Source of the DNA: Escherichia coli
GTDB lineage: Bacteria > Pseudomonadota > Gammaproteobacteria > Enterobacterales > Enterobacteriaceae
Strand: one strand, 5' to 3'
Assembly: GCF_024700885.2 (NCBI RefSeq)
Contig: NZ_CP117016.1
DNA length: 64,000 nucleotides
The notes under the pieces were generated by a model that was given only the letters and a program-made list of their open reading frames with translations, searched no databases and was not told the origin of the DNA. Of this stretch, positions 5,176-64,000 are shown piece by piece. Position 1 is the first letter of the stretch, and each line of letters begins with the position of its first letter. Both the position numbers and the translations under genes were made by a program.

Positions 5176-6840
5176 ATGTTAAAACGTATCAAAATTGTGA
5201 CCAGCTTACTGCTGGTTTTGGCCGTTTTTGGCCTTTTACAACTGACATCAGGCGGTCTGTTCTTTAATGCCTTAAAGAATGACAAAGAAAATTTCACTGT
5301 TTTACAAACCATTCGCCAGCAGCAATCCACGCTGAATGGCAGCTGGGTCGCGTTGTTGCAGACGCGTAACACCCTCAACCGCGCGGGTATCCGCTACATG
5401 ATGGATCAGAATAATATTGGTAGCGGTTCAACCGTTGCTGAGCTGATGCAGAGTGCCAGTATTTCGCTGAAACAGGCGGAAAAAAACTGGGCGGATTACG
5501 AAGCGTTGCCGCGTGACCCGCGTCAGAGCACCGCCGCAGCGGCAGAGATCAAACGTAATTACGATATTTATCACAATGCGCTGGCGGAGCTGATCCAACT
5601 GTTAGGTGCAGGCAAAATCAACGAGTTCTTTGATCAGCCGACCCAGGGATATCAGGACGGTTTCGAGAAGCAGTATGTGGCTTACATGGAGCAAAACGAT
5701 CGGCTCTATGATATCGCCGTCAGCGATAATAATGCCTCCTACAGCCAGGCGATGTGGATTCTGGTGGGCGTGATGATCGTCGTACTGGCGGTCATCTTCG
5801 CCGTCTGGTTCGGTATTAAAGCCTCGTTGGTAGCGCCAATGAATCGCCTGATTGACAGCATTCGTCATATTGCAGGCGGCGATCTGGTGAAACCGATTGA
5901 GGTGGATGGCTCTAATGAGATGGGGCAACTGGCAGAGAGTTTGCGCCATATGCAGGGAGAGCTGATGCGTACCGTCGGTGATGTGCGCAACGGGGCCAAT
6001 GCCATTTATAGCGGTGCCAGCGAAATCGCTACCGGCAATAACGATCTCTCTTCGCGCACCGAGCAACAGGCCGCTTCGCTGGAAGAGACGGCAGCCAGCA
6101 TGGAGCAACTGACCGCAACGGTGAAACAGAACGCCGAGAATGCGCGCCAGGCCAGCCACCTGGCGTTAAGTGCTTCTGAAACGGCGCAACGCGGCGGCAA
6201 AGTGGTAGATAACGTGGTGCAGACTATGCGCGATATCTCCACCAGTTCGCAGAAAATCGCCGATATTATCAGCGTAATTGACGGTATTGCCTTCCAGACC
6301 AATATTCTGGCTTTGAACGCGGCGGTTGAAGCAGCGCGCGCGGGTGAGCAAGGGCGCGGTTTTGCGGTGGTCGCGGGCGAAGTGCGTAATCTGGCCCAGC
6401 GCAGCGCCCAGGCGGCTCGCGAAATTAAAAGCCTGATTGAAGACTCGGTGGGGAAAGTGGATGTTGACTCTACGCTGGTCGAAAGCGCCGGGGAAACAAT
6501 GGCGGAGATTGTCAGTGCTGTGACCCGCGTGACGGACATTATGGGCGAAATAGCTTCTGCTTCTGATGAGCAGAGCCGTGGTATCGATCAGGTTGGCTTA
6601 GCGGTCGCTGAGATGGACCGGGTAACTCAACAGAACGCTGCGCTGGTGGAAGAATCTGCCGCTGCCGCCGCCGCGCTGGAAGAGCAGGCCAGTCGCCTGA
6701 CCGAAGCTGTGGCAGTGTTCCGGATTCAGCAACAGCAGCAACATCAGCGTGAAACATCGGCTGTGGTAAAAACCGTGACGCCAGCTGCGCCGCGTAAAAT
6801 GGCCGTAGCAGATAGCGGGGAGAACTGGGAAACGTTTTAA
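5176..6840 (+). CDS. tsr: methyl-accepting chemotaxis protein I (serine chemoreceptor)
   Basis: 554-aa ORF with N-terminal transmembrane segment, HAMP region, highly conserved MCP signalling domain and C-terminal NWETF pentapeptide. Confidence 0.92.
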
Positions 6841-6851
6841 TCGCCATAAAA

Positions 6852-6881
6852 ATGCCCGATAAGCAAAATGTTATCGGGCAT
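6852..6881. terminator. hairpin between convergent tsr and lgoT
   Basis: atgcccgataa...ttatcgggcat inverted repeat; the T-run lies on the minus-strand side, so mainly the lgoT terminator. Confidence 0.55.
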
Positions 6882-6888
6882 AGGGAGT

Positions 6889-8250
6889 TTAATCTTTACG
6901 CGGGTCGTTGATCGGCTGACGAACCAGGAAGATGTACGCCAGTGCCCCCGCTGCGGTGACGCAACCGCAGATGATTAGTGCCAGACGGAATGAGTGGGTG
7001 GTATCAACAATAAAACCAGTAATGATCGGCGCGAAAGAGGCGCAGATGAAGCTGGCAAAGTTCTGGATACTGCCCACCGACGCCGTCATGCGAGAAGCAA
7101 CTGCGACGTGGATCAAGCCCCAGCAGGATGTTCCGGCAAAGTGAATACAAAACAGTGCCATGCCAATCAGCAGAACCGCTGTCATGGATGTTGTCGCTTG
7201 CGGTACGACCAGCGTAAAGGCGGCAGAACAGAACATCCCGGCAATAATGCAGATCTTACGGCTTTTAATCGGAGCCATTCCCCCTTTGACCAGCCAGTCG
7301 GTAACGTAACCGTTGACCAGCATCCCGGCAGCCCCAAACAGGAAAGGGATAGCAGCCATCAATCCTGTGCTTTTTAAATCCAGGTTATAGGCTGTTTGCA
7401 GGTAACCAGGAAGCCAGGCCAGATACAGCCACGCAGTGTAGTTGATGCCACTGAATCCGAGCATCATTCCCCACATTGTGCGGTTACGGAACAGGCTGCG
7501 CCATTCGGCAAAACTGAGCGGATCTCGGCGGGCATTGACGCTACCTGCATTGAGATAAGCTTGTTCAACGGCAGTCAGTTCTACGTGCTCGCGGTTGCGA
7601 TAGAGCATATACCAGCCGATGGCGAGAAAAATCCCCAGTACACCAATGGTAATAAACATCCCGCGCCAGCCCATCACCAGCATCATCGCCGCCAGAATCG
7701 GTGGGCTTACGGCAACGCCAATGGTAGAAGCTGCGTTGAAGAAGCCCATCGGGCGTCCGCGCTCTTTGATGTTGAACCAGTCGTTAATGACTTTTACACC
7801 GCATGGGTTCATCGGCGCTTCACCAATCCCCATACCGATACGCACCAACACGAACTGCGTAAAGCTGTGAACCATGCCAGACATTGCCTGGAACAGTGAC
7901 CAGAAGAACATCCCCAGTCCCAGCATCAGGCGTGGGCCTTTACGATCCAATAGTGGGCCGCAAGGAAGTTGCGCAATGCCGTAAGCGAGTGAAAACACGG
8001 AGAGCAAAGCGCCGATTTCGGTGGCACTTAATCCCAATTCTTCACGAATTGTTAAATTTGCTACCGACAGCGAACTGCGGTCGAGATAATTGATTACCGC
8101 CGCAAAAAATAATAACAACATGGCGGTGGTTTGAATGCGTTTAATTCGGGTGCTGCGTTGAACTAATCCATCTGGTGGCACGGGAATATCTGCCGACGAA
8201 GATGGAGTAAATGAAGAACGCGGATCGAGGGTGATATTTTCTTTTTCCAC
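6889..8250 (-). CDS. lgoT: MFS transporter (L-galactonate transporter)
   Basis: 453-aa multi-TM ORF (MEKENITLDPRSS...), apparent GTG start; K-12 gene order tsr-lgoT-lgoR-lgoD. Confidence 0.85.
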   Translation of the reverse strand: MEKENITLDPRSSFTPSSSADIPVPPDGLVQRSTRIKRIQTTAMLLLFFAAVINYLDRSSLSVANLTIREELGLSATEIGALLSVFSLAYGIAQLPCGPLLDRKGPRLMLGLGMFFWSLFQAMSGMVHSFTQFVLVRIGMGIGEAPMNPCGVKVINDWFNIKERGRPMGFFNAASTIGVAVSPPILAAMMLVMGWRGMFITIGVLGIFLAIGWYMLYRNREHVELTAVEQAYLNAGSVNARRDPLSFAEWRSLFRNRTMWGMMLGFSGINYTAWLYLAWLPGYLQTAYNLDLKSTGLMAAIPFLFGAAGMLVNGYVTDWLVKGGMAPIKSRKICIIAGMFCSAAFTLVVPQATTSMTAVLLIGMALFCIHFAGTSCWGLIHVAVASRMTASVGSIQNFASFICASFAPIITGFIVDTTHSFRLALIICGCVTAAGALAYIFLVRQPINDPRKD

Positions 8251-19605: not shown

Positions 19606-19692
19606 TGGTGCGAGGGGGGGGACTTGAACCCCCACGTCCGTAAGGACACTAACACCTGAAGCTAGCGCGTCTACCAATTCCGCCACCTTCGC
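19606..19692 (-). tRNA. leuV: tRNA-Leu (anticodon CAG)
   Basis: 87-nt minus-strand tRNA: GCGAAGGTGGCGGAATTGGTAGACGCGCTAGCTTCAGGTGTTAGTGTCCTTACGGACGTGGGGGTTCAAGTCCCCCCCCTCGCACCA, with long variable arm and encoded CCA. Confidence 0.95.
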
Positions 19693-19726
19693 ACAGTCAT
19701 CTTACTTTTTTTGATATCGCCTCGTT

Positions 19727-19813
19727 TGGTGCGAGGGGGGGGACTTGAACCCCCACGTCCGTAAGAACACTAACACCTGAAGCTAGCGCGTCTACCAATT
19801 CCGCCACCTTCGC
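19727..19813 (-). tRNA. leuP: tRNA-Leu (anticodon CAG), variant copy
   Basis: Same 87-nt tRNA with one substitution in the variable arm (plus strand gtaagaac instead of gtaaggac). Confidence 0.93.
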
Positions 19814-19841
19814 CCAGTGCGAGCAATATCAACGTGGTTTT

Positions 19842-19928
19842 TGGTGCGAGGGGGGGGACTTGAACCCCCACGTCCGTAAGGACACTAACACCTGAAGCTA
19901 GCGCGTCTACCAATTCCGCCACCTTCGC
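19842..19928 (-). tRNA. leuQ: tRNA-Leu (anticodon CAG)
   Basis: Third tandem copy, identical to copy 1; first transcribed of the minus-strand leuQPV operon. Confidence 0.95.
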
Positions 19929-22973: not shown

Positions 22974-23048
22974 ATGACGTTGTCTCCTTATTTGCAAGAG
23001 GTGGCGAAGCGCCGCACTTTTGCCATTATTTCTCACCCCAATAATTAA
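22974..23048 (+). pseudogene. prfC: 5' remnant of prfC (peptide chain release factor 3) interrupted by the prophage; attL region
   Basis: ATG at 22974 encodes [22 protein letters not shown], the RF3 N-terminus, then diverges inside the GTPase P-loop to NN-stop at 23046-23048. Confidence 0.75.
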
Positions 23049-23268: not shown

Positions 23269-24486
23269 ATGGCGCTGTCTGATGCGTGGTTGCGTTCAGT
23301 CGTTGGAAAGGAACGTGATAAGGTTTTGGTTAAATCCGATCGTGATGGTCTGTCTGTCAGAGTATCACCGAAAGGTCGCGTAGTGTTCCAATATCGTTAT
23401 CAATGGGCAGGGAAAGGTGAGCGCCTTGATATCGGAACTTACCCGGCAACTGGATTAAAAGAGGCCAGAGAAGAAGTTATCCGTCTCCGTGGTGAACTCG
23501 AGTCAAACCGCAATCCACGATTAGTCAGGCAGGCTGAAAAACGAAAAGCTACTGAAGCCATGACGGTAGAGTCTGTGATCCGTGCCTGGTATGAAGCATA
23601 TTGTGTAAAAAATAAAAAAGGTTCTGAACAGATACTCCGCTCGTTTGAGCTGCACCTGTTCTCTAAAATCGGGAATATCCCTCACGATGCAGCTACATTG
23701 CATGATTGGTTAGAAGTCCTGGAGCCTCTTAGCACTAAGACTCCAGCAATAGCAGACCGATTGCTAATTAACGCAAAGCAGGCCCATGTCTGGGCGTATA
23801 AGAGAAAGCTCATTGAAACTCGCCCACTGTCGGATATCACGGGTAAAGATATGGATATCCGTAAAGGTCAGAAGAAACGGTTTCTGACACATGATGAAAT
23901 TAAAATCCTTTATGCTGCGATCGATGGTTCTCGAATGGTTCCTAAATACCGGGCCTTCATTAAACTATTGCTGCATTTTGGCTGCCGTAGTTCAGAGCTA
24001 ATTACCGCCAGGGTGGACGATTTTGATTTCATTAATAAAGTATGGACTGTACCACCAGAACGACATAAGACTGGGGAGATAACAGGCGAACCGCTAAAGC
24101 GGCCCATTATTGAACCGGTTGAAGAGCTTATAAAGTACGCTATTTCTATGAACAATGGTTCCGATATGCTTTTTACTAAGGAAGGAAGCAGGGAACCCGT
24201 TGGTCGGACATCATTGCAGTCGCTGCCTTACAATTTAATGCAGTACGCATGGCGGCGTTTGGGGTATCAATTCCCTCATTGGTCTCTTCATGATTTGAGG
24301 CGAACAGCACGAACAAACTTTTCTGATCTTACTGCGCCTCATATTGCAGAAATAATGCTAGGTCATAAACTGCCAGGGGTATGGCAGGTTTATGACAAGA
24401 GCGATTATTTAGATGAACAGCGTAAAGCTTACCAGGCATGGTGGGAGAGAGTTGAATCGATAGTTACTTGTACTTGTTCAGACTAG
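23269..24486 (+). CDS. int: tyrosine site-specific integrase
   Basis: 405-aa ORF; C-terminal catalytic region with HDLRRTARTN and LGHKLPGVWQVYD (conserved R, H-x-x-R and Tyr); GGTGAG RBS. Confidence 0.9.
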   Translation: MALSDAWLRSVVGKERDKVLVKSDRDGLSVRVSPKGRVVFQYRYQWAGKGERLDIGTYPATGLKEAREEVIRLRGELESNRNPRLVRQAEKRKATEAMTVESVIRAWYEAYCVKNKKGSEQILRSFELHLFSKIGNIPHDAATLHDWLEVLEPLSTKTPAIADRLLINAKQAHVWAYKRKLIETRPLSDITGKDMDIRKGQKKRFLTHDEIKILYAAIDGSRMVPKYRAFIKLLLHFGCRSSELITARVDDFDFINKVWTVPPERHKTGEITGEPLKRPIIEPVEELIKYAISMNNGSDMLFTKEGSREPVGRTSLQSLPYNLMQYAWRRLGYQFPHWSLHDLRRTARTNFSDLTAPHIAEIMLGHKLPGVWQVYDKSDYLDEQRKAYQAWWERVESIVTCTCSD

Positions 24487-24619
24487 AACTGACATTTTGC
24501 ATAGGCAGAACGCAATTATGCATATTGCGGTATAATCCCCTTCTTAAAACTGTAAGAACTGCTTGCTAATCCTTGCAGTTTTTGATTATAACATTTTTAT
24601 TTGTTTATTAGGATTTTTG

Positions 24620-26752
24620 ATGGAACTGTTACAGGAACACGGGGCGATACTTAAAGTTGTAATCATGCCTACTACTGGGGAACAAACCATAATCCAAGGT
24701 TTCGATACTGGCCTCCTCAACCCAGAGATATCCAACATTCTTTTTTTATTGGCCAAAACACCAAAAGAAATTAGTGAGATTTTTGTCAATGAAAATGATA
24801 ACTTTCAGCCTACTCTAAGCGGGCTAAATCCTATTTTTTTAATATCTAAAGAAAATCTTGAAAAAATACCAGATATTTATCAAACGCCATTTTGCTTAAT
24901 TTTTTGTGCTAAAGAAGATTTTTCGTATGTTTGTGCTTTAAAAAAACATTTTGCTATACCACCTATAATTTGTTGCAATTCTAAACGCGCTGATCTACCA
25001 CTTAATAAGATTAATAGTATATACTCATTTGATAAGGTGCTCTTCTCTCGGTTGAAATTCATTGAGGATAAAATAAGAAAAAATCACAGTGAAAAGAAAA
25101 TATCAACGAAGTTGAAGCGAAGAGGGGCTTTATTTAATAAATCACCTTGGAGATCGACGCTTAACAATTCAACACTACCCAATGAGTTGTTAATTGAATC
25201 ACTTGGCTATATGCTATCTCCACCAAAAAGAATTAAAGATGGTAGTAGCAAAAGAGAGTTTATAGAAATAATACTTCATAGCGTTGATGCATACACCGAA
25301 TGTTTAAAGGAATTAGATATACCACTTCCAACGGAAGTCTTACTTTTTGCTCCGGGTATGCACTCTTTTTTATATGATAAAAATAATGACTTTTATGAGT
25401 TAATAACGGAAAATTTATCCACAATTGAGAAAAAATTCCTTATTGATGGAGTGTTGAGGAATCCAGGCTATTCTGGAATTAGACTTGATATAAATTCAGA
25501 TAGAAAAGAACTTTTTAAAAGTCCTGCTTTCCGTTACCTCACCTCACTAAGACGAGCTGAAATGCGATTAACAACAGCTGCGATTACTTTATTTAGCATA
25601 AATAAAAAAATCCCAGCAATAAGATTGCCAAATGCAATAAATCATTACTCCAATTATTTGAAAAATCTTGAAGATCTTGCAACTTCTTCTGGGATAAATA
25701 GTGAAGCATTCATCACTAAATCTAAAGCATTCAATACTGTTATTCGAAGAGCCCTTGGTTGCAAGTTGAGAACATATATAAGTAAAAACTATAGCGATTT
25801 GTCCTTTGTTTGTGATGTACCATTGGATTGGATTAGGTTTAATAACATACCTATAATGTTCAGTCATGAGATATCAAGAATAAATGCTACGCCTGGTAAC
25901 GTTCTTCTACAGAGCGCCTCTGCTTTTCCGCGCGTTTTAGTAAAAGCATCTGAGTTGAGAAAGGTTTTAGTTATACGTTCTTTTGAGCCTGATGATCACT
26001 TAAAGTTCATATTAGAGAACGCAATTGAGATATTTAAAAAACAGATGCCAGATCTTGATTGCGAGATTATTGATGTTAGATCGAAAGCTGAGTTTATTGA
26101 TGCTCTAAATCAATATCAAGGTCATATTCTTGTTATGGATTGTCATGGAAACCATGATGGCAATGGGAGTCATGGATGGTTAATAATAGGTGAGGATAAA
26201 GTGGACACTTGGAGTTTGAGAAAAATAGCAAGAATTCCTCCTATCGTAATTCTGAGTGCATGTTTAACATCTGCCCTAAGTGGTTCTCATGCCTCTGTTG
26301 CTAATGGCTTCGTTATAAGTGGTGCATTAAGTGTCATCGGAACATTACTGCCTGTAAATGCGATAGACTCTGCTGTTTTTGTAAGTCGGTTGATCTACCG
26401 GTTTTACGAGTTTCCTTCGACGCTATCTACAAATTTTACACATGTTAATGTAAGGCTTTTTCTTTCTGTTTTTCTTAGGATGTCCTATGCAAGCGATTTA
26501 ATAAGAGGATTTTTATCTGAAGATTTGATACCGAATAATTCATGGAAGAAAGATGCAGTTGATATTAACATGTATATAAACATGCTTCACCATGATTGGT
26601 ATGATTATGTAATTAACAAATTGACGATGTTAACGGGGCTCACGAAAAAAGATGTACTTGATTTTATCGATAGAAAATTATTCATAACCGAAACTATGTG
26701 CTATAGCCAAATTGGATTTCCAGATGCAATCACAATTAGTCTTAAAGATTGA
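24620..26752 (+). CDS. large AT-rich cargo protein with C-terminal caspase-like (CHAT-type) His/Cys protease signature; candidate defence protein
   Basis: ATG at 24620 (AGGA 6 nt upstream) gives ~710 aa. C-terminal region HILVMDCHGNHDGNGSHGWLIIGE...IPPIVILSACLTSALSGSH...GALSVIGTLLPVNAIDSAVFVSRLIYRFY has the His (HG) then Cys (SAC) spacing of clan-CD peptidases. N-terminal ~500 aa unassigned. Confidence 0.7.
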   Translation: MELLQEHGAILKVVIMPTTGEQTIIQGFDTGLLNPEISNILFLLAKTPKEISEIFVNENDNFQPTLSGLNPIFLISKENLEKIPDIYQTPFCLIFCAKEDFSYVCALKKHFAIPPIICCNSKRADLPLNKINSIYSFDKVLFSRLKFIEDKIRKNHSEKKISTKLKRRGALFNKSPWRSTLNNSTLPNELLIESLGYMLSPPKRIKDGSSKREFIEIILHSVDAYTECLKELDIPLPTEVLLFAPGMHSFLYDKNNDFYELITENLSTIEKKFLIDGVLRNPGYSGIRLDINSDRKELFKSPAFRYLTSLRRAEMRLTTAAITLFSINKKIPAIRLPNAINHYSNYLKNLEDLATSSGINSEAFITKSKAFNTVIRRALGCKLRTYISKNYSDLSFVCDVPLDWIRFNNIPIMFSHEISRINATPGNVLLQSASAFPRVLVKASELRKVLVIRSFEPDDHLKFILENAIEIFKKQMPDLDCEIIDVRSKAEFIDALNQYQGHILVMDCHGNHDGNGSHGWLIIGEDKVDTWSLRKIARIPPIVILSACLTSALSGSHASVANGFVISGALSVIGTLLPVNAIDSAVFVSRLIYRFYEFPSTLSTNFTHVNVRLFLSVFLRMSYASDLIRGFLSEDLIPNNSWKKDAVDINMYINMLHHDWYDYVINKLTMLTGLTKKDVLDFIDRKLFITETMCYSQIGFPDAITISLKD

Positions 26753-26859
26753 CAACTGTATGTAATAAATATGGCATACTTCCGGCACAGAGCGAATATA
26801 ACAGATCAGGTTTAGCTCTGTGCCATAGGTGTACCAACTCTCATCTGAGCTAATGCTCG

Positions 26860-27054
26860 TTACTCAATAACTCCCGCAAATTTGTAAATCTTGCGTGATG
26901 CCCATTTATTTGGGCATGATTTAATATCAGGATCTGGAAAGTCTGGCCTGTATTTCTGGCCAGTTCTCCTGTTTACGCTGTTCCAGCGAAGAACTGTCGA
27001 TACTGATACTCCACAGAAGTTGGCGACTTGTTTAGTTGTCATTAAGTTGTTCAT
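26860..27054 (-). CDS. small HTH DNA-binding protein, putative excisionase / early regulator
   Basis: 64-aa ORF (MNNLMTTKQVANFCGVSVSTVLRWN...) with strong GGAGGT RBS; start overlaps the upstream stop (TAATG). Confidence 0.5.
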   Translation of the reverse strand: MNNLMTTKQVANFCGVSVSTVLRWNSVNRRTGQKYRPDFPDPDIKSCPNKWASRKIYKFAGVIE

Positions 27055-27674
27055 TACTTTACCTCCTGCGGCGGCTCCGGTAGCGGCATCCAGTGGGTTA
27101 CTTTCGATGCCGGTTCTTCCACATCGTCAGTAACTGCCCACCATTTGTTTCTCGACCAATCGTAATACCCTTCGAAGGTATCGCACTCAGTCCAGCCGTA
27201 AGACTTCCCCCAACACCAAACATACTGTTTATCGTTCGGCATTCGCTCACTACAGCTTATCCAACCATCCGGAGTTACCGGAGAGTTGCCCGACAGCTCG
27301 TTCAACTTGTAAGTCTGGCTTACAGGTTTGGCACCATGAAGCATGGCGGCGCGGCAGGCGTTCCAGCCTTCATCAAAGCCGACTATGCCATTATTTAAAG
27401 ACGGAAGAGCATCCGGCACCACCGACACTGGCTGAGCCATATATAGCGGCTGAACATACCAGCCCTTTGATAACCAACTGTCAGCAATGTTTTTGCTCCT
27501 GGTTATTGCCGGAATACCTAAGCCATTGTCTGAATGAAGCCACGCCACCGGCTCTGCTTCCAGTGATGCCAGAGCAATTTCATAAGCAAGGCGCTCAACA
27601 TTGTCTCGCACGTCTAGGCTGCCGATTCGTTCTTTGATTTCTTTAATCTGTTCCTTATCGGTGTAAGTGGTCAT
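27054..27674 (-). CDS. phage protein with DUF551-like C-terminus
   Basis: 206-aa ORF ending ...KVTHWMPLPEPPQEVK, a motif I recognise from prophage DUF551 proteins. Confidence 0.65.
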   Translation of the reverse strand: MTTYTDKEQIKEIKERIGSLDVRDNVERLAYEIALASLEAEPVAWLHSDNGLGIPAITRSKNIADSWLSKGWYVQPLYMAQPVSVVPDALPSLNNGIVGFDEGWNACRAAMLHGAKPVSQTYKLNELSGNSPVTPDGWISCSERMPNDKQYVWCWGKSYGWTECDTFEGYYDWSRNKWWAVTDDVEEPASKVTHWMPLPEPPQEVK

Positions 27675-39126: not shown

Positions 39127-40179
39127 ATGAAAAATACTGTAAAAATAAACAGTGTTGATTTAATCAACGCTGATTGCCTGCATTTTATTCAGTCCCTGCC
39201 TGATGATTCCATTGACCTGATTGTTACCGATCCGCCGTACTTCAAGGTGAAACCCAACGGCTGGGACAATCAGTGGAAAGGGGACGAAGATTACCTTAAG
39301 TGGCTGGACCACTGTCTGGCCCAGTTCTGGCGGGTGTTAAAACCTGCCGGAAGCCTTTACCTGTTCTGTGGGCATCGCCTGGCATCTGATATTGAGATCA
39401 TGATGCGTGAACGTTTCAACGTGCTTAACCATATCATCTGGGCGAAGCCGTCCGGACGTTGGAATGGGTGTAATAAAGAAAGTCTGCGCGCATATTTTCC
39501 TGCCACAGAGCGCGTTCTGTTTGCTGAACATTACCAGGGGCCATATCGCGGCAAAAGTGACGGCTATGCAGCAAAAGAAAGGGAACTCAAACAGCACATA
39601 ATGGCACCGCTGATATCGTATTTCAGGGATGCTCGTGCCGAACTGGGTATAACGGCAAAACAAATTGCCGAAGCCACAGGTAAGAAAAATATGGTTTCCC
39701 ACTGGTTTGGTGCCAGTCAGTGGCAGTTGCCGAATGAGGCTGACTATCGGAAGTTACAGGCACTGTTTTCCCGTATAGCGGCAGAGAAGTTTCAGGAACA
39801 ACAACTGGAACAACCACACCACCAGCTGGTGGCATCTTATGATTCACTGAATCGTAAATATTCTGAATTGCTGGATGAGTTTAAATCTCTCCGGCGCTAT
39901 TTCTCCGTATCAGTCTCCGTGCCTTATACCGATGTCTGGATGCATAAACCCGTTCAGTTCTACCCGGGGAAACATCCGTGTGAGAAACCGGCGGATATGC
40001 TCAGGCAAATAATCAATGCCAGTAGTCGACCTGGTGATCTGGTTGCTGATTTTTTTATGGGATCCGGTTCCACAATAAAAGCAGCAATGGCGCTGGGGCG
40101 TCGGGCCTTAGGTGTTGAGCTTGAGTCAGAGCGGTTTAACCAGACAGTGAAAGAGATAAACGAGCTGGTGGGGAAATAA
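39127..40179 (+). CDS. orphan DNA methyltransferase (N6-adenine or N4-cytosine class, DPPY motif)
   Basis: 350-aa ORF; catalytic motif IVTDPPYF near the N-terminus and a C-terminal SAM-binding region (FFMGSGST); no adjacent restriction endonuclease gene. Confidence 0.85.
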
Positions 40180-63769: not shown

Positions 63770-64000
63770 AAGATTTAACACTCAAATTTGCAGACAGGGC
63801 CGACTTTTCGGCCTTTATGGAGAGTATTGGCTATTATGATGACGAGTCGATGCAGGATGATATTCTTATTGACGTGATAGGTAACGTGTACAAAGAAACC
63901 GGAGAACTGACTGAAGATGGCGAACCGGTATGTGTTAAGGAAGACGGATATTTTGTAAACGTGCGCATCATTAATGATGTGAAAACACCGTCAATATTCG
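63766..64000 (+). CDS. hypothetical protein after stf (possible tail fibre chaperone), truncated by the window end
   Basis: ATG at 63766 overlaps the stf stop (ATGA) with GGGGGAGAG RBS; translation MKDLTLKFADRADFSAFMESIGYYDD... does not resemble the lambda Tfa N-terminus I recall. Confidence 0.4.
   Translation, partial: MKDLTLKFADRADFSAFMESIGYYDDESMQDDILIDVIGNVYKETGELTEDGEPVCVKEDGYFVNVRIINDVKTPSIF

Follow-up and report, generated by a model that had tools for sequence, protein, structure and literature searches.

The DNA analyzed here, a 64,000-nucleotide stretch of an Escherichia coli genome (contig NZ_CP117016.1; referred to below as the window), spans one end of a prophage and the chromosomal DNA beside it. 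The chromosomal genes rsmC, holD, rimI, and yjjG are followed by the beginning of prfC. Beyond codon 22 of prfC, the sequence becomes AT-rich and then leads into a tyrosine integrase gene (Table 1), indicating that the prophage sits within the 5' end of prfC. Upstream of rsmC are three tandem tRNA-Leu(CAG) genes (positions 19606 to 19928, minus strand), which belong to the ordinary E. coli chromosome and are not the prophage attachment site. When attR was sought with the prfC core, it was absent within the window; the prophage extends past position 64000. The remainder of the window is the genome of a lambda-like siphovirus. Its regulatory and replication genes encode a cI-like repressor, a CII-like activator, an O-like replication initiator, and a Q antiterminator, and further genes encode a DNA methyltransferase, endolysin, terminase, portal, head protease, major tail protein, tape measure, J protein, and tail fiber. 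No DNA polymerase was found among the scanned prophage open reading frames (ORFs) of the window. The methyltransferase (350 amino acids [aa], positions 39127 to 40179, plus strand), encoded between the Q antiterminator and lysis genes, is an orphan, with no obvious restriction partner nearby.

At the prfC end of the prophage, a single large ORF, identified below as bovA, sits between the integrase gene (int) and the excisionase gene (xis). The excisionase ORF carries no RefSeq annotation and was recognized by its PHROGs match. Beside xis lies a gene (27054 to 27674, minus strand) for a product that RefSeq names DUF551 domain-containing and that matches PHROGs families of unknown function. GenBank entries for phages Ayreon (7555 to 8175) and cdtI (6555 to 7175) give the same gene the label “valyl-tRNA synthetase,” which is probably a propagated misannotation.

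Table 1 Features of the bovA locus and its flanks in the window
Feature	Position	Strand	Basis or remark
Truncated 5' end of prfC, attL side	22975..23040	+	First 22 codons; RefSeq partial CDS
Tyrosine integrase, left flank	23269..24486	+	phrog_1, E = 2.2e-75; RefSeq tyrosine-type recombinase
Upstream region, putative native promoter in the published Borvo clone	24486..24619	+	Cloned fragment starts at 24486
bovA CDS, 710 aa plus stop, sole Borvo gene	24620..26752	+	ORF; PADLOC BovA; RefSeq WP_032333474.1
N-terminal region, residues 1-392	24620..25795	+	Two small alpha/beta subdomains and a helical bundle
Clan-CD (CHAT/separase/gingipain-like) protease module, residues ~393-710	25796..26749	+	Boundary inferred from secondary structure
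Codons of D403, M506, and V611	25826-25828, 26135-26137, 26450-26452	+	Departures from family consensus
Pfam CHAT match PF12770, residues 488-592	26081..26395	+	i-Evalue 8.9e-06
His509 codon (DCHG), predicted catalytic His	26144..26146	+	Invariant in 85 homologues
Cys548 codon (LSAC), predicted catalytic Cys	26261..26263	+	Invariant in 85 homologues
Excisionase, 64 aa, right flank	26860..27054	-	phrog_1553, E = 1.9e-35

The open frame that contains bovA runs from 24563 to 26752 and would encode 729 aa from a TTG codon at 24563 or 710 aa from the ATG codon at 24620. An AGGA ribosome-binding site (24610 to 24613) sits 6 nucleotides (nt) 5' of the ATG codon, which is the start used by both RefSeq and Millman et al.; RefSeq names the product “CHAT domain-containing protein.” The gene has a GC content of 34.0% (27% at third codon positions), compared with 45.2% for the integrase gene, 47.2% for the block from xis to yfdR, and 50.2% for the prophage part of the window. 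The earlier note, which was made from the sequence alone, had described an AT-rich gene between int and xis and had proposed that it was acquired separately; the composition of the gene, set against that of its PHROGs-assigned neighbors, bears out the description, and its low GC content supports separate acquisition.

Upstream of the start codon, a perfect -10 element (TATAAT) is present at 24531 to 24536, without a good -35 element, and a scan for the sigma-70 consensus 5' of bovA gave no full match and no convincing promoter. Taken with the extent of the published clone, our reading of the sequence suggests that the region upstream of the gene carries the bovA promoter. The same region contains two imperfect inverted repeats (24493 to 24527 and 24546 to 24582) with 11-nt arms that are 82% and 91% complementary, respectively. 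One of the repeats adjoins the TATAAT sequence, and the other lies in the leader between TATAAT and the start codon; they could form an operator or a leader structure.

A PADLOC search with the product matched a single model, BovA (PDLC03831; E = 1.3e-241, 802 bits), and the alignment ran from end to end, pairing residues 4 to 709 of the protein with positions 3 to 715 of the 720 in the profile. The Borvo system consists of BovA alone. Millman et al. (2022; bioRxiv 10.1101/2022.05.11.491447) list Borvo in Table S2 as entry SG178 from E. coli 403116, verified, with a cloned fragment of 2569 bp and with BovA given as a “CHAT protease” of 710 aa. BovA of E. coli 403116 (IMG gene 2646127138) is also marked “Verified” in Table S22 of that preprint, the main text of which has no mention of Borvo or CHAT; both are found in the tables only (bioRxiv 10.1101/2022.05.11.491447).

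Compared with the verified BovA over the first 399 of 710 residues, the window protein was identical at 398, the sole difference being aspartate in the window protein and asparagine in the verified protein at residue 85. The published cloned DNA matched the window, from position 24486 onward, at 397 of the 399 nt compared. The 90%-identity cluster to which the window protein belongs comprises 508 proteins from E. coli, each of which bears the name CHAT domain protein. Two full-length alleles in this cluster have exactly the verified 399-aa prefix, and we used them as a proxy for the verified C terminus (the last 311 residues); they differ from the window protein at 2 and 3 of 710 positions. 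Near-identity over the prefix and the small number of differences in the prefix-matched alleles make the window gene practically the same as the published Borvo gene. On these comparisons, we identify it as bovA, which by itself makes up Borvo, an anti-phage system already published and validated by experiment. Over the full length, at most a few further substitutions beyond D85 would be expected relative to the verified allele. No functional difference from the verified allele was found.

The alternative that this is a previously undescribed stand-alone CHAT defense gene is one to which we give almost no credence. GenBank phage records label the bovA product “hypothetical protein,” and the Pfam CHAT match is weak and partial, both of which give the gene the look of a novelty. 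The PHROGs family in which the product falls is of unknown function and consists of near-identical copies. The full-length match to the BovA model and the near-identity to both the published verified gene and the cloned DNA argue decisively against novelty. For the same reasons, the statement in the earlier note that no stand-alone prophage gene of this architecture had been described is refuted. Its proposal that the int/xis slot holds an accessory anti-phage gene is supported, given the integrase and excisionase flanks and the BovA match, which came from the PADLOC check that it had suggested for the locus.

By computation, the validated 2569-bp fragment corresponds to positions 24486 to 27054 of the window and so includes, on the opposite strand, the whole excisionase ORF. 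The validated construct therefore consisted of bovA plus xis, with xis probably unexpressed, and the sufficiency of one gene for Borvo activity rests on the annotation of Millman et al., since xis is inside the fragment. We also considered a toxin-antitoxin pair or other two-gene unit formed with xis and rejected it, xis being an ordinary member of an excisionase family, encoded on the other strand as the end gene of the leftward early block. Borvo is a one-gene system, and bovA stands alone in the four contexts sampled, namely, between int and xis in the window and among unrelated neighbors for three distant homologues.

The C-terminal part of BovA was next compared with known proteases. A search of 1.84 billion representative proteins returned 831 relatives at an E value of ≤0.001, and most of the best 150 of these 831 were ~700 to 770 aa long, with alignments that covered the greater part of their length. 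Among 85 aligned relatives with 21 to 54% identity, the invariant columns were R335, P411, G426, H509, C548, G568, and G699. G510 was 99% conserved, and G510, S546, and A547 were all conserved in at least 95% of the relatives. The family profile around the cysteine (ViLSACdT) aligned with VILGACET, the catalytic-Cys motif of the Csx29 TPR-CHAT protein (8d9h). Three C-terminal peptides quoted in the earlier note as a protease signature were found at residues 502 to 520, 539 to 557, and 571 to 596.

An AlphaFold2 model built on the alignment of relatives (pLDDT 92.5, pTM 0.93) places H509 at the end of the strand formed by residues 503 to 512 and C548 just after the strand formed by residues 542 to 545. 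In the predicted model, then, the histidine follows one central strand and the cysteine follows the next, which is the arrangement that marks clan CD. Structural matches included gingipain, separase, caspases, metacaspases, and legumain. In a Foldseek search against the PDB, the top ranks were taken by Csx29, separase, SAVED-CHAT, and the CHAT anti-sigma factor DdvA; among entries to April 2026, no match had a TM-score above ~0.33 and there was no solved Borvo structure. Searching the PDB with the family sequence profile likewise gave no Borvo structure, the sole match being to Csx29 in the region of its Cys motif. The top Foldseek matches aligned over ~280 to 320 residues, compared with 150 to 175 residues for single caspase domains, as would fit a protease module of the larger kind seen in separase and gingipain. 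The Pfam match, the invariant H509/C548 pair, the predicted fold, and the Foldseek matches agree with the earlier assignment of the C terminus to a clan-CD, CHAT-type His/Cys protease, and the profile and structure searches proposed along with that assignment did recover a CHAT/caspase-like fold. A CHAT domain with a conserved His/Cys dyad is also what Borvo membership calls for, and BovA has one.

Relative to the family consensus, the window protein has D403 in place of Glu, M506 in place of Phe, and V611 in place of Trp, and the consensus residue at each of these sites is at least 91% conserved elsewhere. M506 lies three residues ahead of the predicted catalytic His509. The E. coli alleles compared, including those with the verified prefix, are the same as the window protein at all three positions.

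Pseudoenzymes normally lose their catalytic residues. Across 85 homologues of BovA with as little as 21% identity, the His and Cys of the dyad, the neighboring Gly, and the Ser-Ala pair show either full invariance or at least 95% conservation, and this retention makes it improbable that the CHAT domain of Borvo is a scaffold or pseudoprotease with toxicity arising from another activity, a reading left room by the lack of any substrate or catalytic-mutant result in the literature searched. The invariance of the dyad supports real catalysis, presumably proteolysis. Our search for reports on a protease substrate of BovA or on the behavior of catalytic mutants found none, so the proteolytic step is one that we infer from the invariant dyad.

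The N-terminal region (residues 1 to 392) had no Pfam match in the window sequence or in any of 28 homologues, in line with the earlier observation that it could not be assigned to a family. Modeled alone, it was predicted with a pLDDT of 87.4 to form two small alpha/beta units and a helical bundle. A SAVED-like domain was sought in the BovA N terminus, and none turned up; nor does the region have a relative among solved structures. The region is presumably a sensor or regulatory module.

The distribution of bovA was examined in genomes and phage records. The gene is rare: at an identity of at least 99% at the nucleotide level, it was present in 31 of 5426 complete E. coli genomes, always on the chromosome and always annotated as “CHAT domain-containing protein,” and DNA and protein searches found it in 2 of 50,697 phage records (some 50,000 sequenced phages), those of Ayreon and of the cytolethal-distending-toxin phage cdtI (orf33). 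The int-bovA-xis arrangement at prfC also occurs in strain M45, in which the stretch corresponding to 24500 to 26800 is 100% identical to that in the window, and in O121 strains. In the O121 genomes, the alignment of bovA, which occupies the same prophage site in prfC, is shorter by one base (2300 versus 2301 bp). The split was confirmed in O121 strain RM8352 (NZ_CP028110.1, 3121 to 5252), for which RefSeq has two ORFs, one for a “hypothetical protein” of 260 aa and the other for a CHAT protein of 396 aa. From these sequences, Borvo appears to have been inactivated by a frameshift in the O121 lineage.

Homologues with 41%, 36%, and 29% identity were found, respectively, alone in a P2-like prophage, beside a resolvase gene, and between two integrase genes near a NERD protein gene; no partner gene was common to the three contexts. 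The 41%-identical homologue (JGI contig Ga0496119_0002506, 5001 to 7142) lies directly downstream of a CI repressor gene in a P2/186-like prophage, and its other neighbors include Phage_GPA, RepB, and CP76 genes. The P2/186-like prophage is a second, unrelated temperate-phage family with Borvo as a moron.

The presence of bovA in toxin-converting and lambdoid phages (cdtI and Ayreon) and its position adjoining int and xis would also fit a prophage gene with a part in the life cycle of the phage itself or in the virulence of the host (a lysogeny regulator or a host-directed protease, for example) rather than in defense. We consider this very unlikely. The near-identical cloned gene protects E. 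coli from unrelated phages; homologues also occur in nonprophage islands that hold resolvases, integrases, and NERD proteins; and in O121 strains, which have kept the prophage in the same place, a frameshift breaks the gene in two.

What is understood of Borvo activity comes from work on the near-identical E. coli 403116 allele, studied in E. coli MG1655 by Stokar-Avihail et al. (bioRxiv 10.1101/2022.08.27.505566), which supplies the anti-phage activity, the abortive infection, and the DNA-polymerase trigger considered below. Cultures carrying Borvo collapsed or arrested at high multiplicity of infection and survived at low multiplicity, indicating abortive infection. In phages T5, SECphi4, and SECphi18, escape from Borvo came from missense mutations that map to the proofreading cleft of the phage polymerase, and some of these mutations changed conserved metal-binding and single-stranded-DNA-binding residues. 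Expression of the SECphi4 DNA polymerase was toxic only with Borvo, and mutation of the polymerase relieved this toxicity fully or partly. Direct versus indirect sensing was left open by those authors, and the trigger could be indirect (bioRxiv 10.1101/2022.08.27.505566). A later review describes Borvo as poorly understood (PMC11348598). The literature, including that of 2025 and 2026, was searched for a substrate, structure, or mechanism of Borvo, and none was found.

We hypothesize that BovA idles in an auto-inhibited state. When a phage with its own family-A DNA polymerase infects the cell, the polymerase, or a product or act of its proofreading cleft, would activate BovA; the His509/Cys548 dyad of the CHAT domain would then cleave one or more cell proteins, and this cleavage would arrest or kill the infected cell before progeny are made, i.e., abortive infection. 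The carrier phage would presumably be spared by its own bovA, as no DNA polymerase is encoded among the ORFs scanned. Taken as a whole, the explanation that we favor, and consider highly probable, is that bovA, the sole Borvo component, is carried as a moron by a lambda-like prfC prophage, at its int/xis end, and acts through this mechanism. The present analysis is the source for the BovA identity, for the predicted clan-CD fold with its invariant dyad, and for the solitary arrangement of the gene and its prophage setting; proteolysis as the killing step, a sensor role for the N-terminal 390 residues, and the escape of the carrier are our suggestions.

Two accounts of how the trigger might be read can be given, both compatible with Borvo identity. 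The first ~390 residues may be a new kind of sensor module that recognizes unrelated phage family-A DNA polymerases directly, at their proofreading cleft, and thereby releases the separase-like CHAT protease, and the carrier lambdoid phage would be immune through replication by the host polymerase; we hold this account only tentatively. If it were true, the mechanism alone would be new, bovA itself being already known. It is likewise possible, although doubtful, that sensing is indirect, with BovA reading a product of the proofreading exonuclease (released nucleotides, a DNA end, or stalled replication), perhaps via a REC/MID-like alpha/beta domain in its N terminus. The substrate, the choice between direct and indirect sensing, and the nature of the N-terminal half are general questions about Borvo and not discoveries from the window.

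The blind reading of the sequence as a defense gene with this class of protease was correct, but what it rediscovered was a published system. What the window adds is the natural setting of Borvo, which is a moron slot between int and xis in an inducible lambdoid phage that integrates in prfC and is related to Ayreon and cdtI.

Among characterized proteases, separase and the gingipains (clan CD, families C50 and C25) differ from BovA in having only 10 to 16% identity and unrelated flanking domains, and their biology (cohesin cleavage by separase and secreted virulence proteolysis by gingipain) is also different. In contrast with the Csx29 TPR-CHAT protein of type III-E systems, BovA has no TPR N terminus and no Cas7-11/gRAMP, crRNA, or Csx30 partner. 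No cas genes were annotated or seen near bovA, the locus being int-bovA-xis in a lambdoid prophage. The TM-score between the whole chains of Csx29 and BovA was ~0.3. Membership in the Csx29 family was also considered and rejected; the only NCBIfam match was a subthreshold one to NF041237, with 14.7 bits against a cutoff of 300. Unlike the SAVED-CHAT proteins of type III CRISPR and CBASS-like systems, BovA showed nothing SAVED-like in its N terminus and has no cyclase or CRISPR genes nearby. BovA would resemble Csx29/Craspase and SAVED-CHAT in being a sensor-gated CHAT protease, and it is a member of neither. The system that it does match is Borvo of E. coli 403116, with which it shares a length of 710 aa, 398 of the 399 residues compared, the same upstream DNA, the single-gene organization, and the annotation as a CHAT protease, with aspartate in place of asparagine at residue 85 setting the window protein apart from the verified allele.
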